This document shows positions 1,546 through 51,381 of a stretch of 64,000 nt of DNA, one piece after another. The notes under the pieces were generated by a model, which was given only the letters and a program-made list of their open reading frames with translations, was not told where the DNA came from and did no database searches. The stretch comes from an uncultured Alphaproteobacteria bacterium (GTDB lineage: Bacteria > Pseudomonadota > Alphaproteobacteria > Rs-D84), in NCBI GenBank assembly GCA_934255455.1, contig CAKQNS010000002.1:11007-75006 (forward strand), given 5' to 3'. Position 1 is the stretch's first letter. The number at the start of each line of letters is the position of its first letter. Both the position numbers and the translations under genes were made by a program.

Positions 1546-1741
1546 GGATCCCGGGGACACCCCGCCATGGCGGGCACCCCGGCTTCCCAGAGGGGAATTT
1601 AACTGTGTGGCTGGTACAGAGTGAATTCCCCTTCGCTGGCGAAGGGGTGGACGCGCAGCGGACGGGGCAGTGGTAAATATGTCCCCGCAACGGAAATGAA
1701 AAAGCGCGCCGTCGGCGCACTATCTATTATCTATGCTCTAA

Positions 1742-1768
1742 AAATGCGCCGATGGCGCATTTTTTATT
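1742..1768 (-). terminator. Intrinsic terminator (hairpin gcgccgatggcgc plus T-run) at the 3' end of family gene g1; part of the CTCTAAAAA-hairpin module
   Basis: GC hairpin flanked by an A-run and T-run immediately after stop codon 1764-1766 on the minus strand. Confidence 0.6.
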
Positions 1769-2195
1769 CTATCCAAATCGCGGCGTATGTGGTGGCATTT
1801 TGCCCACCAACCGGAATTTTTACATTACCCTTGGTCACGGTGACTTTACCATCGGTCTGGGATACATCGGTCACCACCGCACCCGTACCCGACGATGTGG
1901 AATCCAGCCCACTGATTGCTTCGGTCACGGCCTTTTGCGTCATTGCACCATCAGTGTTTGTACCTGTGGATGTATACAATTTGGTCACACCGGCCGTGGT
2001 ACCCGTACCCGTTGAATATGTCGTATCGGTTGCAGAAATAACAATTTTACCGGCATTCGCACCATTGGTTGGGGTTGAAACCGTGACATTATCCCCCGAA
2101 ACAATATTGGTTTTCGCCACAATATCCGCAAACGCCCCCGACCCCATAAACACGGCAACAAACAAACCGATAAAAATACCCCTAATAATTATCAT
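1764..2195 (-). CDS. Secreted Thr/Gly-rich protein, short member (g1) of the five-gene tandem family
   Basis: Signal peptide MIIIRGIFIGLFVAVFMGSGAFA. C-terminus …NATTYAAIWIE shares the Trp-containing C-terminal motif of the downstream paralogs. The ORF track starts at TTG 2210; an internal ATG at 2195 is the likely start. Confidence 0.5.
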   Translation of the reverse strand: MIIIRGIFIGLFVAVFMGSGAFADIVAKTNIVSGDNVTVSTPTNGANAGKIVISATDTTYSTGTGTTAGVTKLYTSTGTNTDGAMTQKAVTEAISGLDSTSSGTGAVVTDVSQTDGKVTVTKGNVKIPVGGQNATTYAAIWIE

Positions 2196-2282
2196 AGCCC
2201 TTGCATTCAAATATACACAATATTACCAAGACACATTCATAGTATGGCACCGCTGTCACGGCACCATACTATGCACGTTATA

Positions 2283-3341
2283 TTAACGACCGATATATTC
2301 CCAAACCAATGTTTGGGCACCACCCTCGGCAACTTTCAAGGTCAACGCATAATTACCAACCTTGGATAAATCATCGGTATTTTGTGCCAACTGTGTTGCC
2401 GAGATTTTACCCGCCGTGATAGCACTGTCGGCAATCTTTGCTGATGTGACATTTGCATCCGTAATCTTTGCGGTCGTCACGGCACTATCTGCCAATTTTT
2501 CAGTCGTGACATTTTTATCTGCAATCTTTGCGGTTGTGACATTTGCATCTGTAATCTTTGCTGTTGTCACGGCATTATCTGCCAGTTTTTCTGTTGTGAC
2601 ATTTTTATCTGCAATCTTTGCGGTCGTCACAGCATCGGCAGCCAATTTTGCAGCTGTCACATTTGCGTCTTTGATTTTTACTGTCGTCACAGCATCGGCA
2701 GCCAATTTTGCAGCTGTCACATTTGCGTCTTTGATTTTTACTGTTGTCACGGCATTATCTTCGATCATATCTGTTTTGATTTGACCAGTTATGATTTGAC
2801 CAGTGGCATTTGTGATAACGGCCAGGTTTTTATTTGCCTCCGTTTGGTTCTTATCAACCTTGCCATCAATCGAGTCTGCCAAATCTTTATTAACCGCATC
2901 AGCCGCATTTTTCGCAATTTCTTCGGCGACGGCAACGGTCGGGAACTTTACAGCCTTGTCGGTTGCATCTTTATTGTATGTTGTTTCTTTATTCGCAGAA
3001 TCTTCTTTGTCTTTTTTCAAACCATCAATTGCAGTTTTGTTTTCACCAATTGATGTTGTATGACCAGCAATTGCGTTTTTATTTGCTTCGATATCCTCTT
3101 TGATTGTTTTATCATCGTACGCAGTGCCCGTACCATCGATTGTGATTTTGCCATCAACAATTGTCACATCGATACCATTTGAACCGGCAAGATTTGCATC
3201 CGCCCCCCCAACTTTCAATGTGTCTTGTTTTGCCTTCAAACTCTCATCAACATACGTTGTTGCGGCGATATCTGCGCGGGCGGCACCGGCCGTCATAATT
3301 GCAATCATTGAAACTGCAAATATTCCCGATAATTTTTTCAT
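2283..3341 (-). CDS. Secreted repeat protein g2 of the tandem family (about 12 decapeptide repeats D-x-N/A-V-T-T-x-K-I/L-A)
   Basis: Start MKKLSGIF… at ATG 3341 with RBS AAGGAAAG. The first ~110 residues after the signal (…YVDESLKAKQDTLKVGGADANLAGSNGIDV…VKFPTVAVAEEIAKNAADAV) are nearly identical to g3. A 30-bp tandem repeat array encodes NAVTTVKIKDANVTAAKLAAD-type units. C-terminus GNYALTLKVAEGGAQTLVWEYIGR. Confidence 0.75.
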   Translation of the reverse strand: MKKLSGIFAVSMIAIMTAGAARADIAATTYVDESLKAKQDTLKVGGADANLAGSNGIDVTIVDGKITIDGTGTAYDDKTIKEDIEANKNAIAGHTTSIGENKTAIDGLKKDKEDSANKETTYNKDATDKAVKFPTVAVAEEIAKNAADAVNKDLADSIDGKVDKNQTEANKNLAVITNATGQIITGQIKTDMIEDNAVTTVKIKDANVTAAKLAADAVTTVKIKDANVTAAKLAADAVTTAKIADKNVTTEKLADNAVTTAKITDANVTTAKIADKNVTTEKLADSAVTTAKITDANVTSAKIADSAITAGKISATQLAQNTDDLSKVGNYALTLKVAEGGAQTLVWEYIGR

Positions 3342-3418
3342 TTTTCTTTCCTTTGCTTTCATTTATCAAAATTTATGCCATGGCACGCCAAACACGTACC
3401 ACGGCACTCGGTTATTTA

Positions 3419-4279
3419 TTATTCACCTGTAGCCGGGTTTTCATTCTCGGCGCGTTCAATAACTTCCCATGCGTATGCGGCGTTGTTATATGTCAAAACA
3501 CACTTGTTTGTCGGATTCTCACATTCGCCTGCTGGCTTTGGAATCGCTTCGTTAGCGGTTTTTTGTGCGGCATCCGCAGCGGACTTTGCTGTGGCGGCAT
3601 CCTCTACCCCCTTGTCTGCCTGGGTCTTGGCCTCTGTAATTTTTCCATCCAACGCAGTGTCGGCCGCAGTGTACGCATTTGTAATCGTGGTTGTTGCCGC
3701 GTCAATTTTATAATCAACCGAGCCCTCGGTGGTTTTATCGGCGTTCAATTTTGTAATTGCACTTGTATTTGTGCCAATGTTTGTTTCATTGGTGGAAACG
3801 CGCCCTTCCAATGTCGTTAAATCGGTTGAAACCGCATCAGCCGCATTTTTCGCAATTTCTTCGGCAACAGCAACGGTCGGGAACTTTACACCCTTGTCGG
3901 TTGCATCTTTATTGTATGTTGTTTCTTTATTCGCAGAATCTTCTTTGTCTTTTTTCAAACCATCAATTGCAGTTTTGTTTTCACCAATTGACGTTGTATG
4001 ACCAGCAATTGCGTTTTTATTTGCTTCGATATCCGCCTTGATTGTTTTATCATCGTACGCAGTGCCCGTACCATCGATTGTGATTTTGCCATCAACAATT
4101 TTCACATCGATACCATTTGAACCAGCAAGATTTGCATCCGCCCCCTCAACTTTCAATGTGTCTTGCTTTTTGCCGACCTCTTGGTCAACATATCCACGCG
4201 ATGCAACGGCGGCGTCGGCGCTGTTTGCGGCGACAATCCCCAACATTACGGTAAATATACCTGCGGTTAATTTTTTCAT
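3419..4279 (-). CDS. Secreted protein g3 of the tandem family
   Basis: Start MKKLTAGIF… with signal peptide. Same 5' upstream sequence (ttttttcatttttctttcctttc) as g2. Shared N-terminal domain with g2. C-terminus IPKPAGECENPTNKCVLTYNNAAYAWEVIE matches the C-terminal box of g4. Confidence 0.75.
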   Translation of the reverse strand: MKKLTAGIFTVMLGIVAANSADAAVASRGYVDQEVGKKQDTLKVEGADANLAGSNGIDVKIVDGKITIDGTGTAYDDKTIKADIEANKNAIAGHTTSIGENKTAIDGLKKDKEDSANKETTYNKDATDKGVKFPTVAVAEEIAKNAADAVSTDLTTLEGRVSTNETNIGTNTSAITKLNADKTTEGSVDYKIDAATTTITNAYTAADTALDGKITEAKTQADKGVEDAATAKSAADAAQKTANEAIPKPAGECENPTNKCVLTYNNAAYAWEVIERAENENPATGE

Positions 4280-4318
4280 TTTTCTTTCCTTTCTTTTTTT
4301 ATTGTTTTTTTAATTTGT

Positions 4319-5515
4319 TTATTCCAACGGTTCTGTCACATCCATCCAGTATGGGTTGCCATCCTTATCAACCGACAACACGCAACGTCCGGATTCGGCC
4401 GTGCAATTAACGCCTGGTTTCGGTACCGCGTATGCGGTCACGGCCTTGACGGATGTGTATTTGGTTGTGGAATCTTTGTCGGCGGTCGAAATCGCATCAA
4501 CACGGTTGGTGGTCTTTTCAACGCCATTTAATTCCGTCGTGATGTCGTTTTTGGTTGCCAAATCAGAAATTTTTGTTGTGGACATTTCATATTGCCCGGT
4601 TGCATTCACGGTTGCGATGCCGCCCGCGGTTTCGGCGGTCACACCGGTGACCTTGTCTGCCTTGGCCGCGACGGTGGTCGCCACGCCATCAATACGGGTG
4701 CCCAATGCGGTGTCGGCCTCGGTCAATGTGCTGACAGAATCGTCAACCAATGTATTCACCGCCTTGGCCGTTGGATATTGGTCGTCGGTCGAGGCCGCCG
4801 AAATTGTTGTCGTTTTGTTCGATACATCTTCCTTGCCCGCGACAGATGTTTTTAACGATGAAATATCGGTTTTATTCGTGTCAACCTGGGTCGATACGGT
4901 GCTCAACGCGGTTGCCGTGGCCAAATCGGTAATTTTGGTCGAAGAGGCTTCGTATTGGCCGCTTGCGTTCACGGTTGCGATGCCACCGGTGTTCGCCTCG
5001 GTCATACCAGAAACTTTATCAGCCTTGGCCGCCAATGCGTCGCCCATGTCGCCCGCGACAATTTGCGCAACTTTGTCTTCGGTAAATTTAACGATTGCAC
5101 CAACCGATGGATACAGTGTGCCCGACGCCTTGTTCTGGTCGGTAATTTCGGTTGCCTTGTTTGATGTATCTTCTTTGCCGGTCACGGCTTCTTGTAATGC
5201 GGCGACATTTGTTTCGGTCGTGCCAACACGCGTTGTCAAACCGTTCACCGTATTGTTGGTTGTTGTCAATGCCGCATTTGTTGCCAAATCGTCAATCTTG
5301 GTTGTTGAAACCTGGTATTGGCCATTTGCGTCAACCGTTGCGATGTTGCCGGCATTGTCGCCAACATTTGCAACCACGTTCGCCTTGGTGCCCGCCAAAT
5401 TATCAACATAGGCCTGGCTGGCAATTCGTTTTGCCGCCCCATCGGCCGCAGACGCCGCACCAACCGACATGATTGCCGCCATAAATCCAGAAAATGCGAT
5501 ATTATTTATTTTCAT
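4319..5515 (-). CDS. Secreted protein g4 of the tandem family
   Basis: Signal peptide MKINNIAFSGFMAAIMSVGAASA. ASQAYVDNLAGTK N-box. Repeated GIATVNASGQYE(A/M)S(S/T)TKI(T/S)DLAT units. C-terminus YAVPKPGVNCTAESGRCVLSVDKDGNPYWMDVTEP. RBS AAGGAAAAAA. Confidence 0.75.
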   Translation of the reverse strand: MKINNIAFSGFMAAIMSVGAASAADGAAKRIASQAYVDNLAGTKANVVANVGDNAGNIATVDANGQYQVSTTKIDDLATNAALTTTNNTVNGLTTRVGTTETNVAALQEAVTGKEDTSNKATEITDQNKASGTLYPSVGAIVKFTEDKVAQIVAGDMGDALAAKADKVSGMTEANTGGIATVNASGQYEASSTKITDLATATALSTVSTQVDTNKTDISSLKTSVAGKEDVSNKTTTISAASTDDQYPTAKAVNTLVDDSVSTLTEADTALGTRIDGVATTVAAKADKVTGVTAETAGGIATVNATGQYEMSTTKISDLATKNDITTELNGVEKTTNRVDAISTADKDSTTKYTSVKAVTAYAVPKPGVNCTAESGRCVLSVDKDGNPYWMDVTEPLE

Positions 5516-5560
5516 CTGTTTTTTCCTTGGTTATATCTTCGTTACTGTTTCCCGGTTTTA

Positions 5561-6973
5561 CTATGGTTCCACAATTACAATCTCGGACCACGCGCCACCA
5601 CCATTACCATCGGCCGCAAATATATAGTTGCCAGCCGTTTCGGGCGCCGTCATGCCACCAGTTGCCGAAATGGTATCGCCATCAATCGTGATGTTCGTGC
5701 CCGCGGTCAATTTATTTTGCTTGCCCGCCAACGCGGTGTTGATGTCGGTCTTGGTGTAATATTGGTCCGCATCAAATGTACCAGATTGGGTAATTTTCGC
5801 ATCAACCTCGGTCTTGGTATATGCGTCACCAATGCCATATCCCGCCAGGGTTGTTGCCTTGTCCGCCTTGGTCGCGATTGATGCAGTGTTTGCCTCTATC
5901 GCGGCGGTATTTGCATCTATGGCATTTTTATTTGCACTGATGTTTGTGGCATTCGCACCAATCAATGTACGCACCGCCGTGTCGTCATACGATTTCGCCG
6001 AAATGGTATCGCCATCAATCGTGATGTTCGTACCCGCGGTCAATTTATTTTGTTTGTCCGCCAATGCCGTGTTCGTTTCGGTCTTGGTATAATATTGTTC
6101 CGCATCAAATGTACCAGAATCACGGATTTTCGCATCAACTTCGGCCTTGGTATAAACATCCGTCTTGGCCGCATAGATTGCCGACAGTGCACTGATTGCA
6201 TCTGCAATCGCGGTGTTCATTTGCTCTGTTGTGGAATATGCACTTAAATCCGCCGGAGTACCGGGTTCACCCGCCGGCCCCTGGGGCCCAGTGATTTCCG
6301 CCTTGGAAATCAGAATTCGCCAATCAGCATCACCCTCGCCCGCATAGCGCCATAACAGGTCGTTGTCATTTGAACCAATTTCAACCTCGCGCCCATCCTG
6401 GCCGGCGATGCTGCCTATTTCGTCTTTTAACCCATCAACATCAACATAAATTTGATTTGTTGTATTATCAATTACAATAAAACCGTTCAGTGTCGGTTCC
6501 AGCGTATCTTGTTTGTCACCCAATTGGCTTGATAAACTATCGTCCGCTTGGTGCAGTTCCTCGGTATCGCGCTGTAATTGGTCAATTTGACGACGCAAAT
6601 CCGCCACAACCGACGGATCAGTTGTACCACCTTCGCCCGGTTCCGGACGCACAGAACTGCCCCCGCTGACGGATGTGGTGCCCCCCAAATATTTTCCAAT
6701 AGATAAACGCGGTGTTGTTGCCACACGACCCGTTGTTGTTGCGGCCACCGGCTTTGCCGTCGCCGTCGTGCCGGTTTTACCAGCCGTTGGTGTCACACGC
6801 AATGACCCCGCACGCGCCGCACCGGTCGATGTTGCATTTGATGCGGCCGACGCACTGGAGTATGTTCCAGCCCCACCCAGCGAACGCACCGACGATGCCG
6901 CGTCAGCCCCGGAAACCGTGGCGCACACCGCACACACAATCGCAAGTATCGATATTTTGGTGTTATTTTTCAT
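5561..6973 (-). CDS. Secreted protein g5 of the tandem family; collagen-like triplet and phage-tail-fibre-like repeats
   Basis: Signal peptide MKNNTKISILAIVCAVCATVSGADA. KQDTL box as in g2/g3. …WRILISKAEITGPQGPAGEPGTP… Two ~55-aa direct repeats YTK(A/T)EVDAKI…GTFDA(E/D)QYYTKT…LA(D/G)KQNKLTAGTNITIDGDTISA. C-terminus …GGGAWSEIVIVEP. Confidence 0.75.
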   Translation of the reverse strand: MKNNTKISILAIVCAVCATVSGADAASSVRSLGGAGTYSSASAASNATSTGAARAGSLRVTPTAGKTGTTATAKPVAATTTGRVATTPRLSIGKYLGGTTSVSGGSSVRPEPGEGGTTDPSVVADLRRQIDQLQRDTEELHQADDSLSSQLGDKQDTLEPTLNGFIVIDNTTNQIYVDVDGLKDEIGSIAGQDGREVEIGSNDNDLLWRYAGEGDADWRILISKAEITGPQGPAGEPGTPADLSAYSTTEQMNTAIADAISALSAIYAAKTDVYTKAEVDAKIRDSGTFDAEQYYTKTETNTALADKQNKLTAGTNITIDGDTISAKSYDDTAVRTLIGANATNISANKNAIDANTAAIEANTASIATKADKATTLAGYGIGDAYTKTEVDAKITQSGTFDADQYYTKTDINTALAGKQNKLTAGTNITIDGDTISATGGMTAPETAGNYIFAADGNGGGAWSEIVIVEP

Positions 6974-7035
6974 GACTCTCTCTGCTTACATTGATTCTAT
7001 CATATTTTGCGAATCGGGGTCAATACTTTTTCTCA

Positions 7036-7767: not shown

Positions 7768-7845
7768 GTTAAAATTCTCCTTCCAATATCTTGGGCAAAG
7801 TATATCACATTTTTGCCCTGTTTCAAAACCATAAAAAAACAAATA

Positions 7846-30678: not shown

Positions 30679-32154
30679 TTATTGGATACCGACGCGGAAC
30701 TCGTCACCCCAACCGGCGACGGCCTGGCCGCCAACGGTACATTGCAGGGCATCAAAACCTTTTTCAACTTGATTTTTCTTGACCACATGGCTGGTAACCA
30801 AACCACCGGTCGTTCCCAGTACAACCGCAGCAATGGAATCTGATGCCAAACGTGCGGTGTTGAAATTACCCTCGGCATCTTTCCACACGGTCACCTTGAA
30901 ATCATCTTGCATGCTGTCCAATTTGCTGATGATACCACTGATTTTATTGCGCGATGTTGTTTGCTGAACCGACAACTGCGCCGCCGCGGCGTTTTGCGCC
31001 TGTTGGTTTTGCGCTGAAATAAGCGCACGCAATTGCGCCATTAAACTGTTAAATTTAATCGAATCGCGATTGCTGTCATTTGTACAGAATTCTAAAATCG
31101 CATTGATTTTGTTTTGAATTTCGGCGTTTGTTGCATATTGTTCCAACCAGGCATACAACATATTCAAATCAGATTCCGCACAGGTATATGTGGATTGGTT
31201 GTTATTATTTTGCACAACTGTGGCGCCAACACAACTGCGGCTTGATGCATTAAATGTTTTTGTCGCATCAACACATGTGCAATTCGTACCGTTCCATGTT
31301 GCAACCGACGATGGCATATAACAACATGCCTTGCCCTCGGCCGAGGAACGCGAATTCAAACATTTTTGCAACGCGCCACTTTGTACGACGCCCTTGGCCA
31401 CACATTTTTTGTTGACTGCGTCCCACACATGTTTATCGCCACAATTGCATGCCGTGCCATTCCAATTTGTAGGCTCACCCCGGGCGGCGGCCGCCACACA
31501 ATCGGACTGGGCCGCGGTCGCGCCACCATTTGATGTGTTATTACTTGCAATGCCCGCGACCGAACATTTGCCATTATTTACCACCATACCTTCAATACAC
31601 TTGGTCGCCTTGCATACAAATTTTGGTCCCTCGCGGCAAACACCTTCAAATTCAACACCATTTTGATCGGTCATTTCAATACCGCTGCATTCGATTTTGG
31701 TCAAAACACGTACGGCGCCATCCTTCATCAAATGTTGTCCAACCGGAACATCACCAAACGAATTTGTTTTGCAGACGCCGTCCTGCAATTCTTCCCACCG
31801 GTCATTTCCACCCTTGCCACCACGGAATAACAATTCCGTTTTACAGATGTACGATGCCTTGTGATTGATTATTTGTCCCTTGAATACATGTCCGACCGGC
31901 ATAGTCACAGATTGCCCCGTGGTATACCCACCAGAATTATATGCGTCACATTCGTATGCGTACCCACCACCAGAATTTTTATGTCCGGTCGTTTCATACC
32001 CATTTTTCGCCATATTATACTGTGTCGCATTTTCATACAAAAATTCGTCATCATCTGGTTTTTGTGAACCCTCGTAACTGATGATGGTTGCGCCGGCCGC
32101 AAATACCGACATTGGTGCCATTGCCAAAAACAAAACTGCTAGTATTTTTTTCAT
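30679..32154 (-). CDS. Secreted cysteine-rich repeat protein (hypothetical)
   Basis: Signal peptide MKKILAVLFLAMAPMSVFA. About 30 Cys. Internal duplicated unit (T/N)WNGT(A/N)C(N/T)C(G/V)D…(K/S)(K/R)CV(A/G)…VVQ. Cys-free Gln/Ala-rich C-terminal ~150 aa. Confidence 0.6.
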   Translation of the reverse strand: MKKILAVLFLAMAPMSVFAAGATIISYEGSQKPDDDEFLYENATQYNMAKNGYETTGHKNSGGGYAYECDAYNSGGYTTGQSVTMPVGHVFKGQIINHKASYICKTELLFRGGKGGNDRWEELQDGVCKTNSFGDVPVGQHLMKDGAVRVLTKIECSGIEMTDQNGVEFEGVCREGPKFVCKATKCIEGMVVNNGKCSVAGIASNNTSNGGATAAQSDCVAAAARGEPTNWNGTACNCGDKHVWDAVNKKCVAKGVVQSGALQKCLNSRSSAEGKACCYMPSSVATWNGTNCTCVDATKTFNASSRSCVGATVVQNNNNQSTYTCAESDLNMLYAWLEQYATNAEIQNKINAILEFCTNDSNRDSIKFNSLMAQLRALISAQNQQAQNAAAAQLSVQQTTSRNKISGIISKLDSMQDDFKVTVWKDAEGNFNTARLASDSIAAVVLGTTGGLVTSHVVKKNQVEKGFDALQCTVGGQAVAGWGDEFRVGIQ

Positions 32155-34983: not shown

Positions 34984-35820
34984 TTACGCTTCCAATGCAC
35001 GGATTAAATCGTCGTAATCCAAATTTGTGCATTCGGCGGGCTTGCCAACCGTATTCCAAATGCTGTTTTCACATTCGGCCTTTAATTCTTTCAGGCTTTG
35101 TAAAAACGCACTGTATTGTGTTGGTTTTTCTTTCTTTAACGCCAACAATTGACTGCGCAGCAATTCATCATCGGCCAATGCCTTTTGTCCCTGGACCTTG
35201 CCGCCAATCAGTTTATTTCCGAACAATTCCATTACACCAACACCAACGCCGGCGCCACCAACCGCGCCACCAACGGTCGCCCATACGCGGGCCTTTTTCT
35301 TGGCATCCAGAATGCGTTGTTGCATTTTGGCCTCGTCCACCCAGGCACCACATGTGATATTTTGTCCCCATTCATAATACTGGGTTGGAATATCCGAAAC
35401 ATCAATGCGCGAATCGGTCGATTTCATACCAACCTTAACAAAGCATGTGTTGTTTTCTGGATTCTCGGTATCCTCGGTCATGGTGGCATAATTTGATGTA
35501 TTGCTGTACCGCGACGCCCAAACGAACGTGTTGCCAACGCCAATATTATTACTTATGCATGCCTTTTTTTCAGCCTCGCGCGTGTCAACAGCCGGCTTTT
35601 CCGGTTCGGTGGGTTCCACACGAACACTGGATTTATTATCCGACGGATTTGACATAGACATAGATGCCATCGCACTCAGTTGCCCCGTTGATGCCGTGGC
35701 ACGCGGTGCACTGGCAACCATTTGCGTCTGCATTGAACGACGCGAATGTCCGGCCGCCTCTAACGCAAACGACGGCGCCACAAAAACGCTGAACACTATC
35801 AAAGAAACTATCGCTTTCAT
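34984..35820 (-). CDS. Hypothetical secreted protein
   Basis: Signal peptide MKAIVSLIVFSVFVAPSFA. Gly-rich GGAVGGAGVGVGV segment. No recognisable domain. Confidence 0.5.
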   Translation of the reverse strand: MKAIVSLIVFSVFVAPSFALEAAGHSRRSMQTQMVASAPRATASTGQLSAMASMSMSNPSDNKSSVRVEPTEPEKPAVDTREAEKKACISNNIGVGNTFVWASRYSNTSNYATMTEDTENPENNTCFVKVGMKSTDSRIDVSDIPTQYYEWGQNITCGAWVDEAKMQQRILDAKKKARVWATVGGAVGGAGVGVGVMELFGNKLIGGKVQGQKALADDELLRSQLLALKKEKPTQYSAFLQSLKELKAECENSIWNTVGKPAECTNLDYDDLIRALEA

Positions 35821-35934
35821 TATGGAATCCCCCACTACTTTGGTGGGTATTATACCACAAAATCGACCAAAAATAAAGGCCAAATGCAATACCGCAAAAA
35901 AATCGGGCCGCAAATTACGCGACCCACAATTGAT

Positions 35935-37026: not shown

Positions 37027-38655
37027 TTAATTCAATGGTGCGCCCCAATGCTGTTGGATACTGCGTTCTGCATCCATCGGACTGACCAATACCTGGGGAG
37101 TCAAGATAACCACCAGTGTATCACGCGTGGCCGATGTTTCGCGCGACCCCGACAGTGCCATAAAGTCCGGATCACCCAAGCCATAACGCGTATCGTTATT
37201 GGTCTGTTTTTCAAATCCAGATACAACCAACATCTGGCCAGATTCCATAATAACTTCTTGCATGAAACTGCGCTCTTCAACCTCGGGCAATTGCAATGTG
37301 ACCTCGCCAATGGTTTGGGTTGACATTTTCAGCAATTCGCGAACCGACATACGGAACAGCAACAGAATCTTGCCATTTTCCAAAACATTCGGCAACAATT
37401 GCATTGAAAATCCGGTTTCCAAATCGTCCTGGTCAACGGTGCTGGATTCAACCGTTGTGAAATTACGCGATTCAAAACGTTTGATATAGCCGGTCGTTTT
37501 GGTGTTGTTTACAGGCGCAACGCGGTTGCTGCGCGTTGTCACACCAACATTTGTCACCAACGATACCTTGCCCTGTTTGGCCAAAGCCTCTATCAATGCA
37601 TTACTGCCCGCGCCACGCGCCAACGAACCGTTTTGAATTTGGTTCTGGGTATATGCACCGGCGACCGTAGAACCATTTTCTAAATGTGTTGCCCCCGTCA
37701 GTGCCGATACGGTGTTTGACAAAACAGCAATGTTCATGGAACTGGCCTCGGTCGTGGCAAGGTTATTTTTTGGATTCGCCACAATGTTCAATCCAGACGC
37801 ACTGTTGATGGCCGCCGCCAAATTCAATCCAAACGCCGAATCGTTAGACACAGATACCTGCAAAACCTTGACATCAATTGTCACCAATTGCGACAGCCGC
37901 TTGTTTTGTTTGTTGATATAATCGCCAACACGTGTCAATACCGACGGTGGCGCGGTCACGGTAATGGTTCCCAAACTGCGCGACACGGTGAACTCGGCGT
38001 TTTCAGATTTTCCGATAATACCGGAAATGGCCTTTTCAATTTCATCCCATTCTTTTAATGTAGATTCCAATGCGACCTGGTTTCCGTCATCGGTTTGAAC
38101 CGCGGTCTGGTATGAAACATCGGTTCCCAGTGCATATAATGTAAATGTTTTGGTTTCCGTTTCATAAAATACAATTGATGTTTTGTCATAATACCACAGC
38201 AAATCTAAATCGGTTGCAACCTGGGATAACAGGCCCGACAATTTGCCGGTATACGCAACATTGATGGTCTTTTTCAATTTTTCGGAATTTACCTGGCTGT
38301 CAATTTTAACCGGCAATCCGGTAATAGAATTAATGTCATTTGCCAAAACCTGTAATGTGACGGGGTCATTCAACAGAATTGTCACACCGGTATCGGTTTC
38401 GAAACGCGATGGCAAATTATTGCGATGTTCCAGCACGGTCGATTTGTTGCCCAACCATACGCCCTCGGACATGGAAACAGTGTCACCACTGGCAACCTTG
38501 GCACGAGGATTTTTAGACATTTCAAACGCATCGTACGCGTTGATAAAATCCTGGTCAACCTTGGCGGCAACCTTGGCCGATTCCTTGGTGGTGCACCCCG
38601 CCAGCGCAACCGCCAACGCACCACACGCAAATAATACTTTCATTGTTTTTATCAT
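37027..38655 (-). CDS. Lipoprotein secretin of the type IVb pilus family (PilN/TcpC/BfpB-like)
   Basis: ATG 38655 with RBS GGAGAG. Lipobox LAGC. C-terminal secretin domain (…GQMLVVSGFEKQ…RYGLGDPDFMALSGSRETSATRDTLVVILTPQVL…). ~540 aa, the size of R64 PilN and BfpB. 37 bp after the TcpQ-like gene. Confidence 0.7.
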   Translation of the reverse strand: MIKTMKVLFACGALAVALAGCTTKESAKVAAKVDQDFINAYDAFEMSKNPRAKVASGDTVSMSEGVWLGNKSTVLEHRNNLPSRFETDTGVTILLNDPVTLQVLANDINSITGLPVKIDSQVNSEKLKKTINVAYTGKLSGLLSQVATDLDLLWYYDKTSIVFYETETKTFTLYALGTDVSYQTAVQTDDGNQVALESTLKEWDEIEKAISGIIGKSENAEFTVSRSLGTITVTAPPSVLTRVGDYINKQNKRLSQLVTIDVKVLQVSVSNDSAFGLNLAAAINSASGLNIVANPKNNLATTEASSMNIAVLSNTVSALTGATHLENGSTVAGAYTQNQIQNGSLARGAGSNALIEALAKQGKVSLVTNVGVTTRSNRVAPVNNTKTTGYIKRFESRNFTTVESSTVDQDDLETGFSMQLLPNVLENGKILLLFRMSVRELLKMSTQTIGEVTLQLPEVEERSFMQEVIMESGQMLVVSGFEKQTNNDTRYGLGDPDFMALSGSRETSATRDTLVVILTPQVLVSPMDAERSIQQHWGAPLN

Positions 38656-38694
38656 ATTACTCTCCAAGATTCCCAGTTTCACACGCACCATTTA

Positions 38695-39585
38695 TTATTC
38701 TTCGGATGTTGTAATTACCAACACACGGTTTCCTTTATAAAATTTCGCATACGGAACTGGTGTCGCGCGCCCAAAATTACGAACCAATGCCGATGCTACA
38801 TCAACAAAGCGACCCTTGAACACGGCGCTGGCCTCTATCGGATATTCACGCGATGTCGCCCATACTAAATCCCAGCCCTCTTTGTCGCACCAGTTTTGCA
38901 GAACCTCGCGCAATGTTTGACCATTTGCAACAACCCACGAACGAACTTGGTCGGTCAATTTCTGGGCTGGTTCCGCATCGGCAGATGTGTCAACCGCGAT
39001 TTCTTTTTCTTCGACAATTTCACCATTTTCGTCGGTAATTGTTTTTGTCATTCCCATCTTGGCCGCGAACGCCGCATATCCATCAGATGCATTGTTGCAA
39101 TTTTTGCGACCACTGCGTGACACGGTCAGAACACTGCCCCCGTCATCTTCCAACATTTCGCGGTGCAGCAATGGCATTTCGGAACCATTATTGCATTCGT
39201 CATCAAATCCGACCGGGATCTGGTTGCCATGCAACATATTCGCCCCGCCCGACCAATCGCCATATCCGTTAGTCGCCAGATTGAAATTATTTTCCACAAC
39301 CAAATCGTTGCCAATTTTGGAAACAATTCTGATATTGTCAGATGTCGCCGATTTTTCGCACGCCGCATCACCACAGGCAACCGTAACATCGGCATCAGAC
39401 CCGGCAATCGGCCACACCGGAACCGGCATCTGCGTTTCCTGGCTGTCAACATATTGATTTTCATCAACCACATTTTCCTGGGTATAGAAAACCTCGCTCG
39501 TGACGACCTGGGGCAAAGATTCCGCCGCAAAGCAATAGCCCGCCGCGGTTGCAAACATTGCGACAATCAAAAATTTACGGAACAT
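38695..39585 (-). CDS. TcpQ/PilL-like pilus biogenesis protein (secretin partner)
   Basis: Signal peptide MFRKFLIVAMFATAAGYCFA. C-terminal …GQTLREVLQNWCDKEGWDLVWATSREYPIEASAVFKGRFVDVASALVRNF matches the TcpQ-family C-terminal domain pattern. RBS AAGGAAG before ATG 39585. Confidence 0.55.
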   Translation of the reverse strand: MFRKFLIVAMFATAAGYCFAAESLPQVVTSEVFYTQENVVDENQYVDSQETQMPVPVWPIAGSDADVTVACGDAACEKSATSDNIRIVSKIGNDLVVENNFNLATNGYGDWSGGANMLHGNQIPVGFDDECNNGSEMPLLHREMLEDDGGSVLTVSRSGRKNCNNASDGYAAFAAKMGMTKTITDENGEIVEEKEIAVDTSADAEPAQKLTDQVRSWVVANGQTLREVLQNWCDKEGWDLVWATSREYPIEASAVFKGRFVDVASALVRNFGRATPVPYAKFYKGNRVLVITTSEE

Positions 39586-39761
39586 AAAAACTTCCTTTAC
39601 TGAATAAGTTGTTTCATTTATTGCACTTATTATAACAATTTGACCGAATCTGTGCAAGACCAAATCGCACCCAACAAATTTAATATTTTCAAGATAAAAT
39701 CGCACGAATCGGTAAAAGATGTTATACTGTTCGTGTTTAATACGACATACGGGGCGAAAAA

Positions 39762-49842: not shown

Positions 49843-51381
49843 TCAGAACGCAAAACGTGCGTTAAATGACACACGATGCATTGTACCAAAATCGGTTGTG
49901 ATAATGCCGAATTCGGCACCACCGCCGGCGGCATCAAACACAGACCAGGCATCAATATGCAATGCAGCACCAACATCGCCCGATGTTTCGGCGCGCATAC
50001 GCAAACCATAATCGTATGTCAAATCATCCGTGCCACCATGCGTATCAATATCAACGCCAATGCCAGTGTTGCTTTTATTATCCGACTGGTGTGCCACCAC
50101 GGCACGGTTTATGCCGGCGCCCGCAAAGGGCGTAAAAACAAAATCACCATCCGGATTCAAATGAACCCCAACATCAAATTGACCATAAAAACTTTTACCA
50201 TTTGGCGCCGAACGCGTCTTGGCACCGTCCATAACAAAATCTGATTCAAATGTGGCAAACGATGCTCCAACAATGCCACGCGCCATAAATTCGCCGTTGT
50301 CATATTTTGCACCAATATTTGCACCGACAAACGAACCAACAAAATCATTTATATCGTCCGACACATCAACCATACCGGCATAACCCGCAACACCAACATT
50401 AAAATTATTTGTAAAGGCTACACCATACGACATACGCGCCGCGTTTATATTTGCTTCCGCATTTTTAATTACAATTGGCGCAATGTAAAAATCATTTTCA
50501 ATGTTCAAATTAAACATTTCAAACGCATCAAACACCCGCACAGGATTCATCAGATTTATCGGATTCAGCCGCACAGATTTTGCCATAACTCCACGCAATG
50601 CCTCGATATCCGGTGCGCCATCCATTGCGACCAGCAATCTGTCATGTGGAGACGCCGCACGCACCGAATGCAGGAAATTTCCAGTATTTGAATCAAGTAT
50701 CTTGCGATAGTCTGTTTCACGAACCGTTGTCACATACAGCTTGTCATTTTCTATGTATGTTTTGATTGCCATCAACGGATTATCATTTGGCGCAATAATT
50801 GTTGCAACGCCGGTACCACCAATATTATCAATTAAAATTCCATTGGCCAAATCACGCAACGAATTCACATACAATTTTACATTTCCAATCAATTGTATCA
50901 ACGACGTGTCTGCAATTGTGGAATCAATAACCAACGATGAATTTTCCAGAATTATGCGACCGCTGGTGCCACCAATTGAAACTATATCGCCCAACGATAA
51001 CATTTCGGCATTGCGAACTAATATTGAATAATCAACATCCGTTTCTAAATTTTTTATGTCATCTGACGAAGTTATCAATTGTGTCAAACGCGAATTTGTC
51101 CCCAAATAAAAATCGGCATCCATTGTGCCACTGTTTTTAATGCTCAACGCCATACCATCGGCGACATGAATATTGCCCTGGAACAAACCACGGTTTTCGA
51201 ACGCCAATGCCGCATCAATGTACAAATCTGAAATATAAACACCGCCACGCATATCAATATATACATCATCCGCCACATGATAATCAGACGCATACATACC
51301 ACCATAAAAGCGCTCACCGTATGATGTCGTCACCGACACCAGCGTCACAATGAAACCAAAGGCAATTTTTCCTATACGCAT
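49843..51381 (-). CDS. Autotransporter-like outer-membrane protein (passenger plus C-terminal beta-barrel)
   Basis: Signal peptide. Repetitive beta-rich N-terminal region. C-terminal ~250 aa with alternating aromatic/Gly beta-strand pattern ending …RVSFNARFAF (terminal Phe). Confidence 0.55.
   Translation of the reverse strand: MRIGKIAFGFIVTLVSVTTSYGERFYGGMYASDYHVADDVYIDMRGGVYISDLYIDAALAFENRGLFQGNIHVADGMALSIKNSGTMDADFYLGTNSRLTQLITSSDDIKNLETDVDYSILVRNAEMLSLGDIVSIGGTSGRIILENSSLVIDSTIADTSLIQLIGNVKLYVNSLRDLANGILIDNIGGTGVATIIAPNDNPLMAIKTYIENDKLYVTTVRETDYRKILDSNTGNFLHSVRAASPHDRLLVAMDGAPDIEALRGVMAKSVRLNPINLMNPVRVFDAFEMFNLNIENDFYIAPIVIKNAEANINAARMSYGVAFTNNFNVGVAGYAGMVDVSDDINDFVGSFVGANIGAKYDNGEFMARGIVGASFATFESDFVMDGAKTRSAPNGKSFYGQFDVGVHLNPDGDFVFTPFAGAGINRAVVAHQSDNKSNTGIGVDIDTHGGTDDLTYDYGLRMRAETSGDVGAALHIDAWSVFDAAGGGAEFGIITTDFGTMHRVSFNARFAF

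Follow-up and report, generated by a model that had tools for sequence, protein, structure and literature searches.

A conserved operon in reduced Rs-D84 genomes that may encode exported, modular surface fibres

What might a gut bacterium with a genome of less than 1 Mb do with a run of repeat-rich, apparently exported proteins? The question is raised by a locus in a 64,000-nucleotide (nt) stretch of contig CAKQNS010000002.1 (positions 11,007 to 75,006, forward strand; the window, hereafter) from an uncultured alphaproteobacterium of the order Rs-D84. An earlier note, made from this sequence alone, had described five consecutive minus-strand genes encoding paralogous secreted repeat proteins beside an outer-membrane protein (OMP) gene, and had proposed either a variable surface or adhesin repertoire or domesticated phage receptor-binding proteins. 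With moderate confidence, we consider the locus to be a dedicated Rs-D84 operon of Sec-exported, modular, probably trimeric surface fibres for attachment, the cores of which are reshuffled. All five co-oriented open reading frames (ORFs) were found where the note had placed them, and the shorter ATG starts of A, B, and C are correct because identical or orthologous database proteins have 143, 352, and 286 amino acids (aa). The note had put the array upstream of the OMP gene; transcriptionally, the array is downstream of it. The OMP product terminates in ...VGVRYEF, a beta-signal of the classical type, and gives a weak NCBIfam match to Rick_Adr; its orthologs match PF13505. The genes are as follows.

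1764 to 2195, minus strand: fibre gene A, 143 aa
2283 to 3341, minus strand: fibre gene B, 352 aa
3419 to 4279, minus strand: fibre gene C, 286 aa
4319 to 5515, minus strand: fibre gene D, 398 aa
5561 to 6973, minus strand: fibre gene E, 470 aa
7036 to 7767, minus strand: OMP gene, 243 aa, small outer-membrane beta-barrel, OMP_b-brl / Omp25-Adr-like

Enterousia falls within the GTDB order Rs-D84. Its members have genomes of less than 1 Mb and are without flagella, respiration, and most biosynthetic capacity; the prediction is that they live as obligate symbionts or parasites on other cells (PMC12306168). No description of the fibre proteins was found in the searchable literature on Enterousia or Rs-D84. 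A scan of one genome per GTDB species yielded 79 fibre loci, nearly all in metagenome-assembled genomes labelled Candidatus Enterousia, "Alphaproteobacteria bacterium," or "uncultured Rickettsiales," with human, ruminant, horse, rabbit, and bird guts as sources. One locus sits on a circular chromosome of 958,618 bp, and a C protein identical to that of the window occurs in Hadza and other human gut metagenomes, on contigs of 275 to 800 kb. About 80 Rs-D84 genomes of less than 1 Mb carry one fibre locus each, in the same order. Two contigs with a typical Rs-D84 locus, CAVGNU010000018.1 and JAZSGM010000027.1, are filed as "Bacteroides fragilis" and "Clostridia bacterium," labels that are probably a binning error.

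When the ORFs of 82 loci were typed by the N- and C-terminal 40 to 48 residues of each type, the order OMP, E, D (1 to 4 copies), C, B, A was found to recur; complete arrays (n = 40) contain 2 to 6 fibre genes, usually 4 or 5. The OMP gene stands directly before the array in 61 of the 82 loci, and in most of the others the available sequence breaks off upstream. The fibre locus lies between pal/ftsEX/tolB and rbfA/lepA; in three distant genomes the gene string reads tolB, nuclease, plsC, DUF218, ftsX, ftsE, (pal), then OMP and the fibres, then VTT/DedA, rbfA, and lepA. Each operon position keeps its own leader and N terminus across the whole order. Judged by these typed termini, the operon is conserved throughout Rs-D84, once per genome, with four to five positional types that are distinct from one another, and its basic gene set is ancient and positional, not a recent expansion.

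The sequence between the termini is far less constant. Lengths of family ORFs range from 86 to 1063 aa (E type, 287 to 1063; D type, 225 to 884), with E-type strain variants of 470, 485, 491, and 557 aa. Near-identical strains (about 99% DNA identity) differ in that 63 nt are inserted in E and 60 nt are deleted from B, the latter change producing a B variant of 332 aa. In one species, the flanks of which are about 90% identical, other sequence takes the place of B and most of A, and in genus-level relatives, with flanks 75 to 80% identical, the fibre genes are not alignable at all. C-terminal boxes have also been recombined between positions, evident by B/A, C/B, B/C, and D/C combinations; termini are kept per position, and cores and C-boxes are shuffled. 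Copy number and repeat length do vary across related genomes, as the earlier note had envisaged (1 to 4 copies of D; indels of 60 to 63 nt between strains), and its variable surface or adhesin repertoire is supported as far as recombination and length variation are concerned, but not as a recent expansion of five like paralogs. Phase variation by short repeats was considered and dropped, because all the short repeats found (30, 60, and 90 nt) keep the reading frame.

How similar to one another are the five proteins? By BLASTP, the N-terminal 177 aa of B and C are 76% identical (E 1e-80), B and C match D at E about 1e-6, and A and E give marginal matches only. Recent exchange was seen only between B and C, in 300 nt at 96% DNA identity, and the parts of the two genes flanking this segment are unrelated to each other; on this pattern, the segment is attributed to gene conversion or recent exchange between paralogs. 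Profile-profile comparison showed the C-terminal boxes of B, C, and D to be homologous (hhalign 97%) and that of E to be weakly related to B's (hhalign 74%), and it detected no relation of the box of A to the others. Because these BLASTP and profile-profile links are partial, the five proteins are, as far as their sequences tell, a network of mosaic relatives and not five copies of one gene. The multigene family of the earlier note is thus real in the sense of exported repeat proteins with a recombination signal (B/C exchange and C-box shuffling), but its members are not five uniform paralogs. The parts of each type are listed below.

1764 to 2195, minus strand: A type, leader, then tail-fibre motif GVTKLYTSTGTNTDGAMTQKAVTEAI, then conserved C-module ALDSTSSGTGAVVTDVSQTDGKVTVTKGNVKIPVG....YAAIWIE
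Gene B, minus strand: N-terminal 177 aa in common with C, then deca/pentapeptide beta-solenoid-type array (2431 to 2760), then Trp hairpin (2286 to 2363)
2881 to 3180, minus strand: segment of B, 300 nt, 96% DNA-identical to 3819 to 4118 in C (repeat search)
Gene C, minus strand: leader MKKLTAGIF.., then VASRGYVD box, then small beta module, then long helices including an alanine-zipper-like stretch
3452 to 3544, minus strand: C-terminal parts of the C type, disulfide box and Trp hairpin
Gene D, minus strand: leader, then IASQAYVD box, then three 121-aa repeats with KEDxSNKxT..YP(S/T)..AV modules
4322 to 4429, minus strand: 3' end of the D type, PKPxxxCxxxxxCVL and Trp hairpin
Gene E, minus strand, first parts: leader, then conserved ASSVRSLGGxGTY, then Ala/Ser/Thr/Gly-rich linker, then coiled coil
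Gene E, minus strand, following parts: small beta module and GPQGPAGEPGTP, then two 111-aa tail-fibre-like repeats, then Trp hairpin (5564 to 5650)

The signal peptides claimed for all five proteins are present as Sec-type leaders: by inspection, each has a K/R-rich n-region, a hydrophobic core of 12 to 15 residues, and an AxA site, with putative cleavage in A to E at AFA-D, ARA-D, ADA-A, ASA-A, and ADA-A (hyphens mark the cut). Using type-specific alignments of ~350 relatives, the leader plus ASxxYVD region was found to be homologous among A, B, C, and D (hhalign probability 95 to 99%, scores that are possibly inflated by signal-peptide composition), and the N terminus of E differs from these. 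Of the YVD box said to be common to the five, what stands is that B, C, and D carry it and that the leader region of A is homologous; protein A of this locus is itself without YVD, and the N terminus of E is different. Across the order, the C-type N terminus reads MKKLTAGIF...ADA-AxASKGYVD, and the E-type N terminus, common to 936 homologs, reads MKxDLKISxLAIxCVLC...ASSVRSLGGxGTY. By eye, the box resembles the beta-layer entry AATKAYVDKAI of the HylP1 tail fibre (PMC4786415) and the YxD motif of stalks of trimeric autotransporter adhesins (TAAs) (PMC2373917); the HylP1 prophage fibre sequence HAATKAYVDKAI is a documented beta-layer-to-coiled-coil entry that is listed as a TAA short-neck homolog (PMC4786415). 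A strict count of beta-layer motifs gave no significant enrichment over shuffles. An N-terminal "Ala-Asp" peptidoglycan-linkage motif, known from Brucella OMPs, was also considered and dropped, the predicted mature N termini being inconsistent with it.

At the other end, mature A, B, C, and D contain one Trp each, located inside the C-terminal box, which consists of a strand, a G/N/D-rich turn, and a second strand bearing the invariant Trp. This Trp hairpin lies within the last 48 aa in 267 of the 353 ORFs of the family, drawn from 82 loci and the window, and in an alignment of 63 diverse copies the Trp is the only invariant column; the conserved box is not a low-complexity artefact. The Trp-centred box that had been ascribed to all five is shared by B, C, and D and weakly by E, but that of A is not detectably related; the PKPxxxCxxxxxCVL pattern noted in two members was confirmed in C and D. 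A CxxxxxC pair precedes the hairpin in about half of the members. Among 348 locus ORFs, the mature regions contain no Cys in 180, two in 167, and one in a single ORF; values of 0 or 2 in 347 of 348 are as expected for folding in an oxidising compartment, and we count them for export. Acidic or Thr-rich variable tails of up to about 25 aa often trail the hairpin, which argues against a strictly C-terminal sorting signal such as the beta-signal recognized by BAM.

The AlphaFold2 (AF2) monomer model of C comprises helices at residues 136 to 181 and 188 to 245 and the hairpin at 260 to 273, with predicted local distance difference test (pLDDT) values of 88 to 94; a hairpin that caps a long helix, as modelled, would fit a folding or registration element equally well as a sorting or anchoring signal. 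Homology of the C-box to the T4 foldon, suspected by eye, was rejected at the level of sequence: the family HMM gives the foldon -0.4 bits, a value equalled or exceeded by 313 of 2000 shuffles. A profile search of the PDB with the hairpin returned generic hairpins only and no foldon-tagged chain at E <= 10, though the PDB holds many. The likeness would be topological only, i.e., a modelled rod capped by a small hairpin.

The cores are assembled from recognisable modules, albeit mostly below the thresholds of curated families. For the six proteins (A to E and OMP), Pfam and NCBIfam gave nothing above curated cut-offs, with the Pfam scan of the five fibre proteins reported down to E <= 1, and a PDB sequence search with C, D, E, and OMP gave nothing meaningful. 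The decapeptide repeats described earlier were found in B as an array of 30/60/90-nt periodicity, built of 30-nt units (2431 to 2760); this array matches phrog_28766, a tail fibre family, at 1.7e-37, together with other tail-fibre PHROGs, and in the PDB it matches pentapeptide-type solenoids, with DotG repeats (2.4e-6) and designed solenoids among the matches. In Pfam, B reaches Decapeptide at 3.5e-4 and Pentapeptide_4 at 0.18, both under cut-off. Larger repeats are carried by D (three 363-nt units) and E (two 333-nt units). The collagen-like GPQGPAGEPGTP is present in E as claimed; among E orthologs, one (in the related locus L006) has a Pfam Collagen match and some have long collagen runs. 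The phage-tail-fibre-like modules were also borne out, by tail-fibre PHROGs in B and weakly in E and by a Phage_fiber_2-type motif in A (Pfam E 9.5e-4, under cut-off). A Fibritin_C annotation of two E homologs was discounted, the match sitting in an internal coiled coil and not in the hairpin.

Of the internal K(E/D)D(T/S)xNKxT box claimed for all five, the part confirmed is a KEDxSNKxT...YP(S/T)..AV module in B, C, and D. A KEDxSNKxT..YPSxKAV module recurs in "beta strand repeat-containing" proteins of Flavobacteriia, and the KEDxSNKxT module is also found in a distant relative with a Phage_tail_C match just under the Pfam cut-off (22.8 versus 23.7 bits). Upstream of its C-box, C has an alanine-zipper-like, Ala-rich heptad segment (Pfam Alanine_zipper, 19.8 bits versus a cut-off of 23.1). 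The tail-fibre motif of A, GxTKLYTxTGxNTDGAMTQKAVTEA, occurs also in leaderless Firmicutes proteins; leaderless proteins of 82 to 83 aa that consist almost wholly of the motif EKEGxTKLYTGTGxNTDGAMTQKAVTE, common to A, are widespread in Lachnospiraceae contigs, one cluster covering 96 contigs. The fibre family itself is small, since an exhaustive HMMER search with D yielded only 416 cluster representatives among 1.84 billion.

Is the array expressed as a unit? The spacer between the OMP and fibre genes, typically about 63 nt across relatives, is far better conserved than the coding sequences (about 50 species), and the consensus of 57 orthologous spacers reads TTGACCCCGATTCGCAAAATATGATAxxA ... 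GTAGAGAGA ... ATG. Its elements are TTGACC, a 17- to 18-nt promoter spacer with an invariant CCGATTCGC, an extended -10 element TGnTAnnAT, and a Shine-Dalgarno-like AGAGAGA; the invariant CCGATTCGC may be an operator. With these conserved promoter elements in the OMP-E spacer, the fibre genes thus have a near-consensus, strong-looking predicted promoter of their own. A separate promoter of the OMP gene is predicted at 7826 to 7799, and the link of the fibres to the OMP gene is adjacency only. The predicted signals are as follows.

6994 to 7023, minus strand: sigma-70-type promoter TTGACC, 18 nt, TG-n-TAGAAT (consensus scan), inside the 62-nt OMP-E spacer (6974 to 7035)
3375 to 3407, minus strand: stem-loop after C, 14 bp (intergenic fold, -24.9 kcal/mol)
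2238 to 2273, minus strand: stem-loop after B, 16 bp (intergenic fold, -33.1 kcal/mol)
1703 to 1764, minus strand: downstream of A, a pair of GC-rich stem-loops and then T-runs; bidirectional, the gene at 868 to 1443 being convergent

The stem-loops downstream of A likely mark the operon end. The E-D and D-C spacers are short and unstructured; among relatives, a stable hairpin (<= -15 kcal/mol) is present in 51/51 C-to-B, 13/13 B-to-A, and 7/7 B-to-B spacers and in 0/37 E-to-D spacers. An Rfam search with the intergenic stem-loops gave chance-level matches only, and a stem motif that they share has no further occurrence in the window. Graded expression from intergenic stem-loops has its analogy in pilus operons, and the arrangement here suggests graded expression in the order E, D, C > B > A, with attenuation or mRNA-stability control of subunit ratios suggested by the position of the stem-loops.

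We propose that this strongly promoted operon would supply a few fibre proteins (five in the window) that are Sec-exported, elongated, and modular. Once its leader has been removed, each chain would assemble into a parallel homotrimeric rod, starting from an ASxxYVD beta-layer to coiled-coil entry (A to D) or a flexible Ala/Ser/Thr/Gly linker (E). The rod body would be made of interchangeable cassettes, namely alanine-zipper coiled coils, tail-fibre beta modules, short collagen triplets, and deca/pentapeptide solenoid repeats, and the rod would end in the beta-hairpin with the invariant Trp, disulfide-stapled in about half of the members and acting as a C-terminal registration or trimerisation cap. 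Such rods would coat the cell surface and attach the metabolically dependent bacterium to a partner or host. Cassettes exchanged between paralogs, and repeats gained or lost, would diversify the cores, the conserved termini serving as folding or registration caps and possibly as recombination anchors. Trimers are supported indirectly, because three kinds of module present here, namely collagen triplets, the alanine zipper, and beta modules of tail fibres, form trimers in known proteins; trimer formation, the role of the hairpin, surface exposure, and adhesion are what we infer from the sequences.

Several observations weigh against this proposal. The five proteins have no outer-membrane anchor, beta-barrel, lipobox, or known surface-sorting signal in Pfam and NCBIfam, no globular ligand-binding tip domain was found in them, and in sequence the hairpin bears no detectable resemblance to the T4 foldon. 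Of the two monomer AF2 models, the one of C is confident only in part and the one of A poorly so (mean pLDDT 54). Between strains, SNPs are no denser in the fibre genes than in the flanks (about 99% identity in both), and adjacency to the OMP gene may be an effect of high synteny in reduced genomes.

The same conserved ends could be explained in another way, with the Trp hairpin or the ASxxYVD box as a targeting or anchoring signal that docks onto an envelope partner or a dedicated translocon, which would mean a new, barrel-less pathway of fibre display. Candidate partners are the co-located OMP, of the 8-stranded type, and a TcpC/TcpQ-like lipoprotein secretin about 30 kb away. This explanation draws on termini that are conserved per type across the order while cores are replaced, on an OMP gene found ahead of the array in 61 of 82 loci, at a constant distance of around 63 nt, on a secretin and TcpQ pair in the same window with no pilus genes beside it, and on the fact that Pfam and NCBIfam reveal no other recognisable anchor in the fibre proteins. 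However, the hairpin is often trailed by variable tails and so is not strictly C-terminal, C-boxes are freely swapped between types, the box of A is unrelated, and the fibre promoter is separate from that of the OMP gene; moreover, an 8-stranded barrel is unable to translocate a fibre, and nothing but proximity connects the secretin with the fibres, over some 30 kb of a genome of about 0.9 Mb. We regard a targeting role of the termini as unlikely. Decidedly unlikely, too, is a bolder picture of a display pathway new to science, in which Sec-exported trimeric fibres without a barrel would use their conserved ends (the disulfide-stapled Trp hairpin, the ASxxYVD beta-layer cap, or both) to cross the outer membrane or dock onto it, with the OMP or the orphan secretin as partner, and in which the graded five-gene operon would build the organelle that holds these obligate symbionts to partner cells in human and animal guts. 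The secretin genes are as follows.

37027 to 38691, minus strand: secretin, 554 aa, PF00263, with N-terminal lipobox LAGC
38695 to 39705, minus strand: TcpQ-domain protein, 336 aa, PF10671, preceding the secretin

Two further explanations can be weighed against the attachment-fibre proposal. The proteins might be periplasmic structural coiled coils, analogues of Lpp or CpoB, that serve as spacers or tethers tied to the neighbouring Tol-Pal and FtsEX genes; they have Sec leaders and no feature for outer-membrane translocation, the alanine-zipper segment is similar to Lpp/OprI-type lipoproteins, and the locus sits between pal/ftsEX/tolB and rbfA/lepA. A ruler or tether whose geometry is fixed would nevertheless sit badly with lengths of 86 to 1063 aa and with cassette exchange between close relatives. 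The modules belong to the repertoire of extracellular phage fibres and collagen, no lipobox or peptidoglycan-binding domain was detected with Pfam and NCBIfam, and the array, transcribed divergently from pal, has a promoter to itself, leaving this account quite improbable. Tail fibres (receptor-binding proteins) of a remnant or domesticated prophage, tailocin, or gene-transfer agent have some sequence matches on their side, namely the PHROG tail-fibre families in B and weakly in E, Phage_fiber_2 in A, four weak tblastn module matches in human faecal and crAss-like phages among 50,697 phage records, and the distant relative with Phage_tail_C at 22.8 versus 23.7 bits, below cut-off. Yet Sec leaders, absent from virion proteins, are present in every member, the array is without phage structural, lysis, or integration genes, its housekeeping flanks are syntenic in all genomes, two pattern-based scans of IMG/VR found no relatives, and the family is small (416 representatives by exhaustive HMMER). 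We therefore judge a phage origin of this kind very improbable, and the domesticated phage receptor-binding proteins of the earlier note are unlikely as stated; given the Sec leaders, the housekeeping synteny, and the lack of relatives in the two scans of viral contigs, only modules are in common.

Other features of the window and of related loci were recorded alongside. No pilin or ATPase genes adjoin the TcpC/TcpQ-like secretin pair in the window, and dprA and plsY are adjacent to it; the pair may be left over from a competence or type IVb system, or it may be an export channel. Between dprA and plsY lies an ORF at 34984 to 35913 (minus strand, 309 aa) with a leader, a low-complexity region, a Gly-rich hydrophobic stretch, a Cys pair close to the C terminus, and no Pfam match. 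Two more minus-strand ORFs, at 30679 to 32154 (491 aa) and 49843 to 51381 (512 aa), match no Pfam family at E <= 1e-5, and their surroundings are housekeeping genes (dnaA, dnaN, gyrB, uvrC, dnaJ, sufB, and gatAB). Beyond lepA, to the left of the window, two related loci (L001, 15758 to 18027; L006, 17378 to 21185) contain 3 to 7 small hypothetical genes (115 to 259 aa) and then an integrase-like gene (Arm-DNA-bind_3); the number of genes in this run differs between species, and it may be a small integrated element.

The lineage is widespread, uncultured, and resident in the guts of humans, ruminants, horses, and birds, and its genome, at less than 1 Mb, yet keeps a fibre operon of about 5 kb. 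Since so small a genome retains the operon strongly promoted, in the same place, and rapidly reshuffled, it is the best current candidate for the attachment apparatus of the lineage. Its interest stems from the organism, the conserved multi-gene architecture, and the question of export. The fibres could serve as handles toward the partner cell, i.e., as antigens for labelling and sorting or as baits for binding assays, and the combination of conserved termini and swappable cores would be a natural example of cassette-based fibre engineering. To the few mosaic bacterial fibres on record (TAAs and Bdellovibrio mosaic adhesive trimer (MAT) proteins), the operon would add a relative that is rich in coiled coils and has no barrel, and it raises a testable question, that of how barrel-less fibres are exported and anchored.

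The proteins stand outside well-described families, as the earlier note had supposed: no Pfam, NCBIfam, or PDB family fits, including the YadA anchor, the MAT N-domain, and SLH. From S-layer proteins of the SLH or RsaA type they differ in having Sec leaders and in giving no SLH or RTX match (Pfam and NCBIfam). The C type shares an Ala-rich heptad segment, just under the Pfam cut-off, with the Lpp/OprI alanine-zipper lipoproteins, whereas the Rs-D84 proteins are without a lipobox or a C-terminal Lys for peptidoglycan linkage, are much longer and variable, and carry extra modules. Resemblance is closer to TAAs (type Vc; YadA, BadA, and UspA), with a Sec leader, a mosaic, repeat-rich fibrous build, a coiled-coil stalk, YxD-type or beta-layer-like motifs, strong length and cassette variation between relatives, and a probable adhesive role. 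In contrast to TAAs, they do not match YadA_anchor (PF03895, four strands per chain; Pfam E <= 1) and end in a two-strand, soluble-looking hairpin (260 to 273 in the AF2 model of C), they have no Hep_Hag, HIM, or YadA head in Pfam, and several distinct genes form one operon.

With phage fibres and fibritin (T4 Wac foldon; HylP1, PDB 2C3F), the Rs-D84 proteins have in common a Phage_fiber_2-type motif, decapeptide arrays, collagen triplets, an "ATKAYVD"-like beta-layer entry, and, as in fibritin, the overall logic of a coiled-coil rod, here predicted, that is finished by a small C-terminal beta-hairpin. They differ in being cellular, Sec-exported, chromosomally syntenic, and without an enzymatic or receptor-binding head, and their hairpin has a longer strand-to-Trp spacing than the foldon and no sequence similarity to it. 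The Bdellovibrio MAT superfamily offers a parallel in multigene, Sec-exported, phage-tail-fibre-like mosaic fibres that have no barrel anchor and whose producer lives off other cells; MAT fibres have a conserved beta-rich N-terminal domain of about 130 aa, beta-prism shafts, and variable C-terminal tips or an S74 chaperone-protease (PMC10769870). The conserved N-element of the Rs-D84 proteins, in contrast, is about 10 aa (ASxxYVD) or, in E, SSVRSLGGxGTY plus a low-complexity linker, their shafts are largely coiled coil, their C terminus is conserved, and Pfam gives no Peptidase_S74 match. No sequence relationship to the Bdellovibrio MAT proteins was detected.

A last parallel comes from the M and M-like proteins of streptococci, in which a conserved leader and C-terminal end flank a hypervariable, recombining coiled-coil core and repeat number is polymorphic between strains. 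Those proteins are dimeric, LPXTG-anchored, and Gram-positive, whereas the Rs-D84 proteins are without LPXTG or sortase and belong to a diderm host; the design of conserved ends, a hypervariable, recombining core, and repeat-number polymorphism is alike in both.

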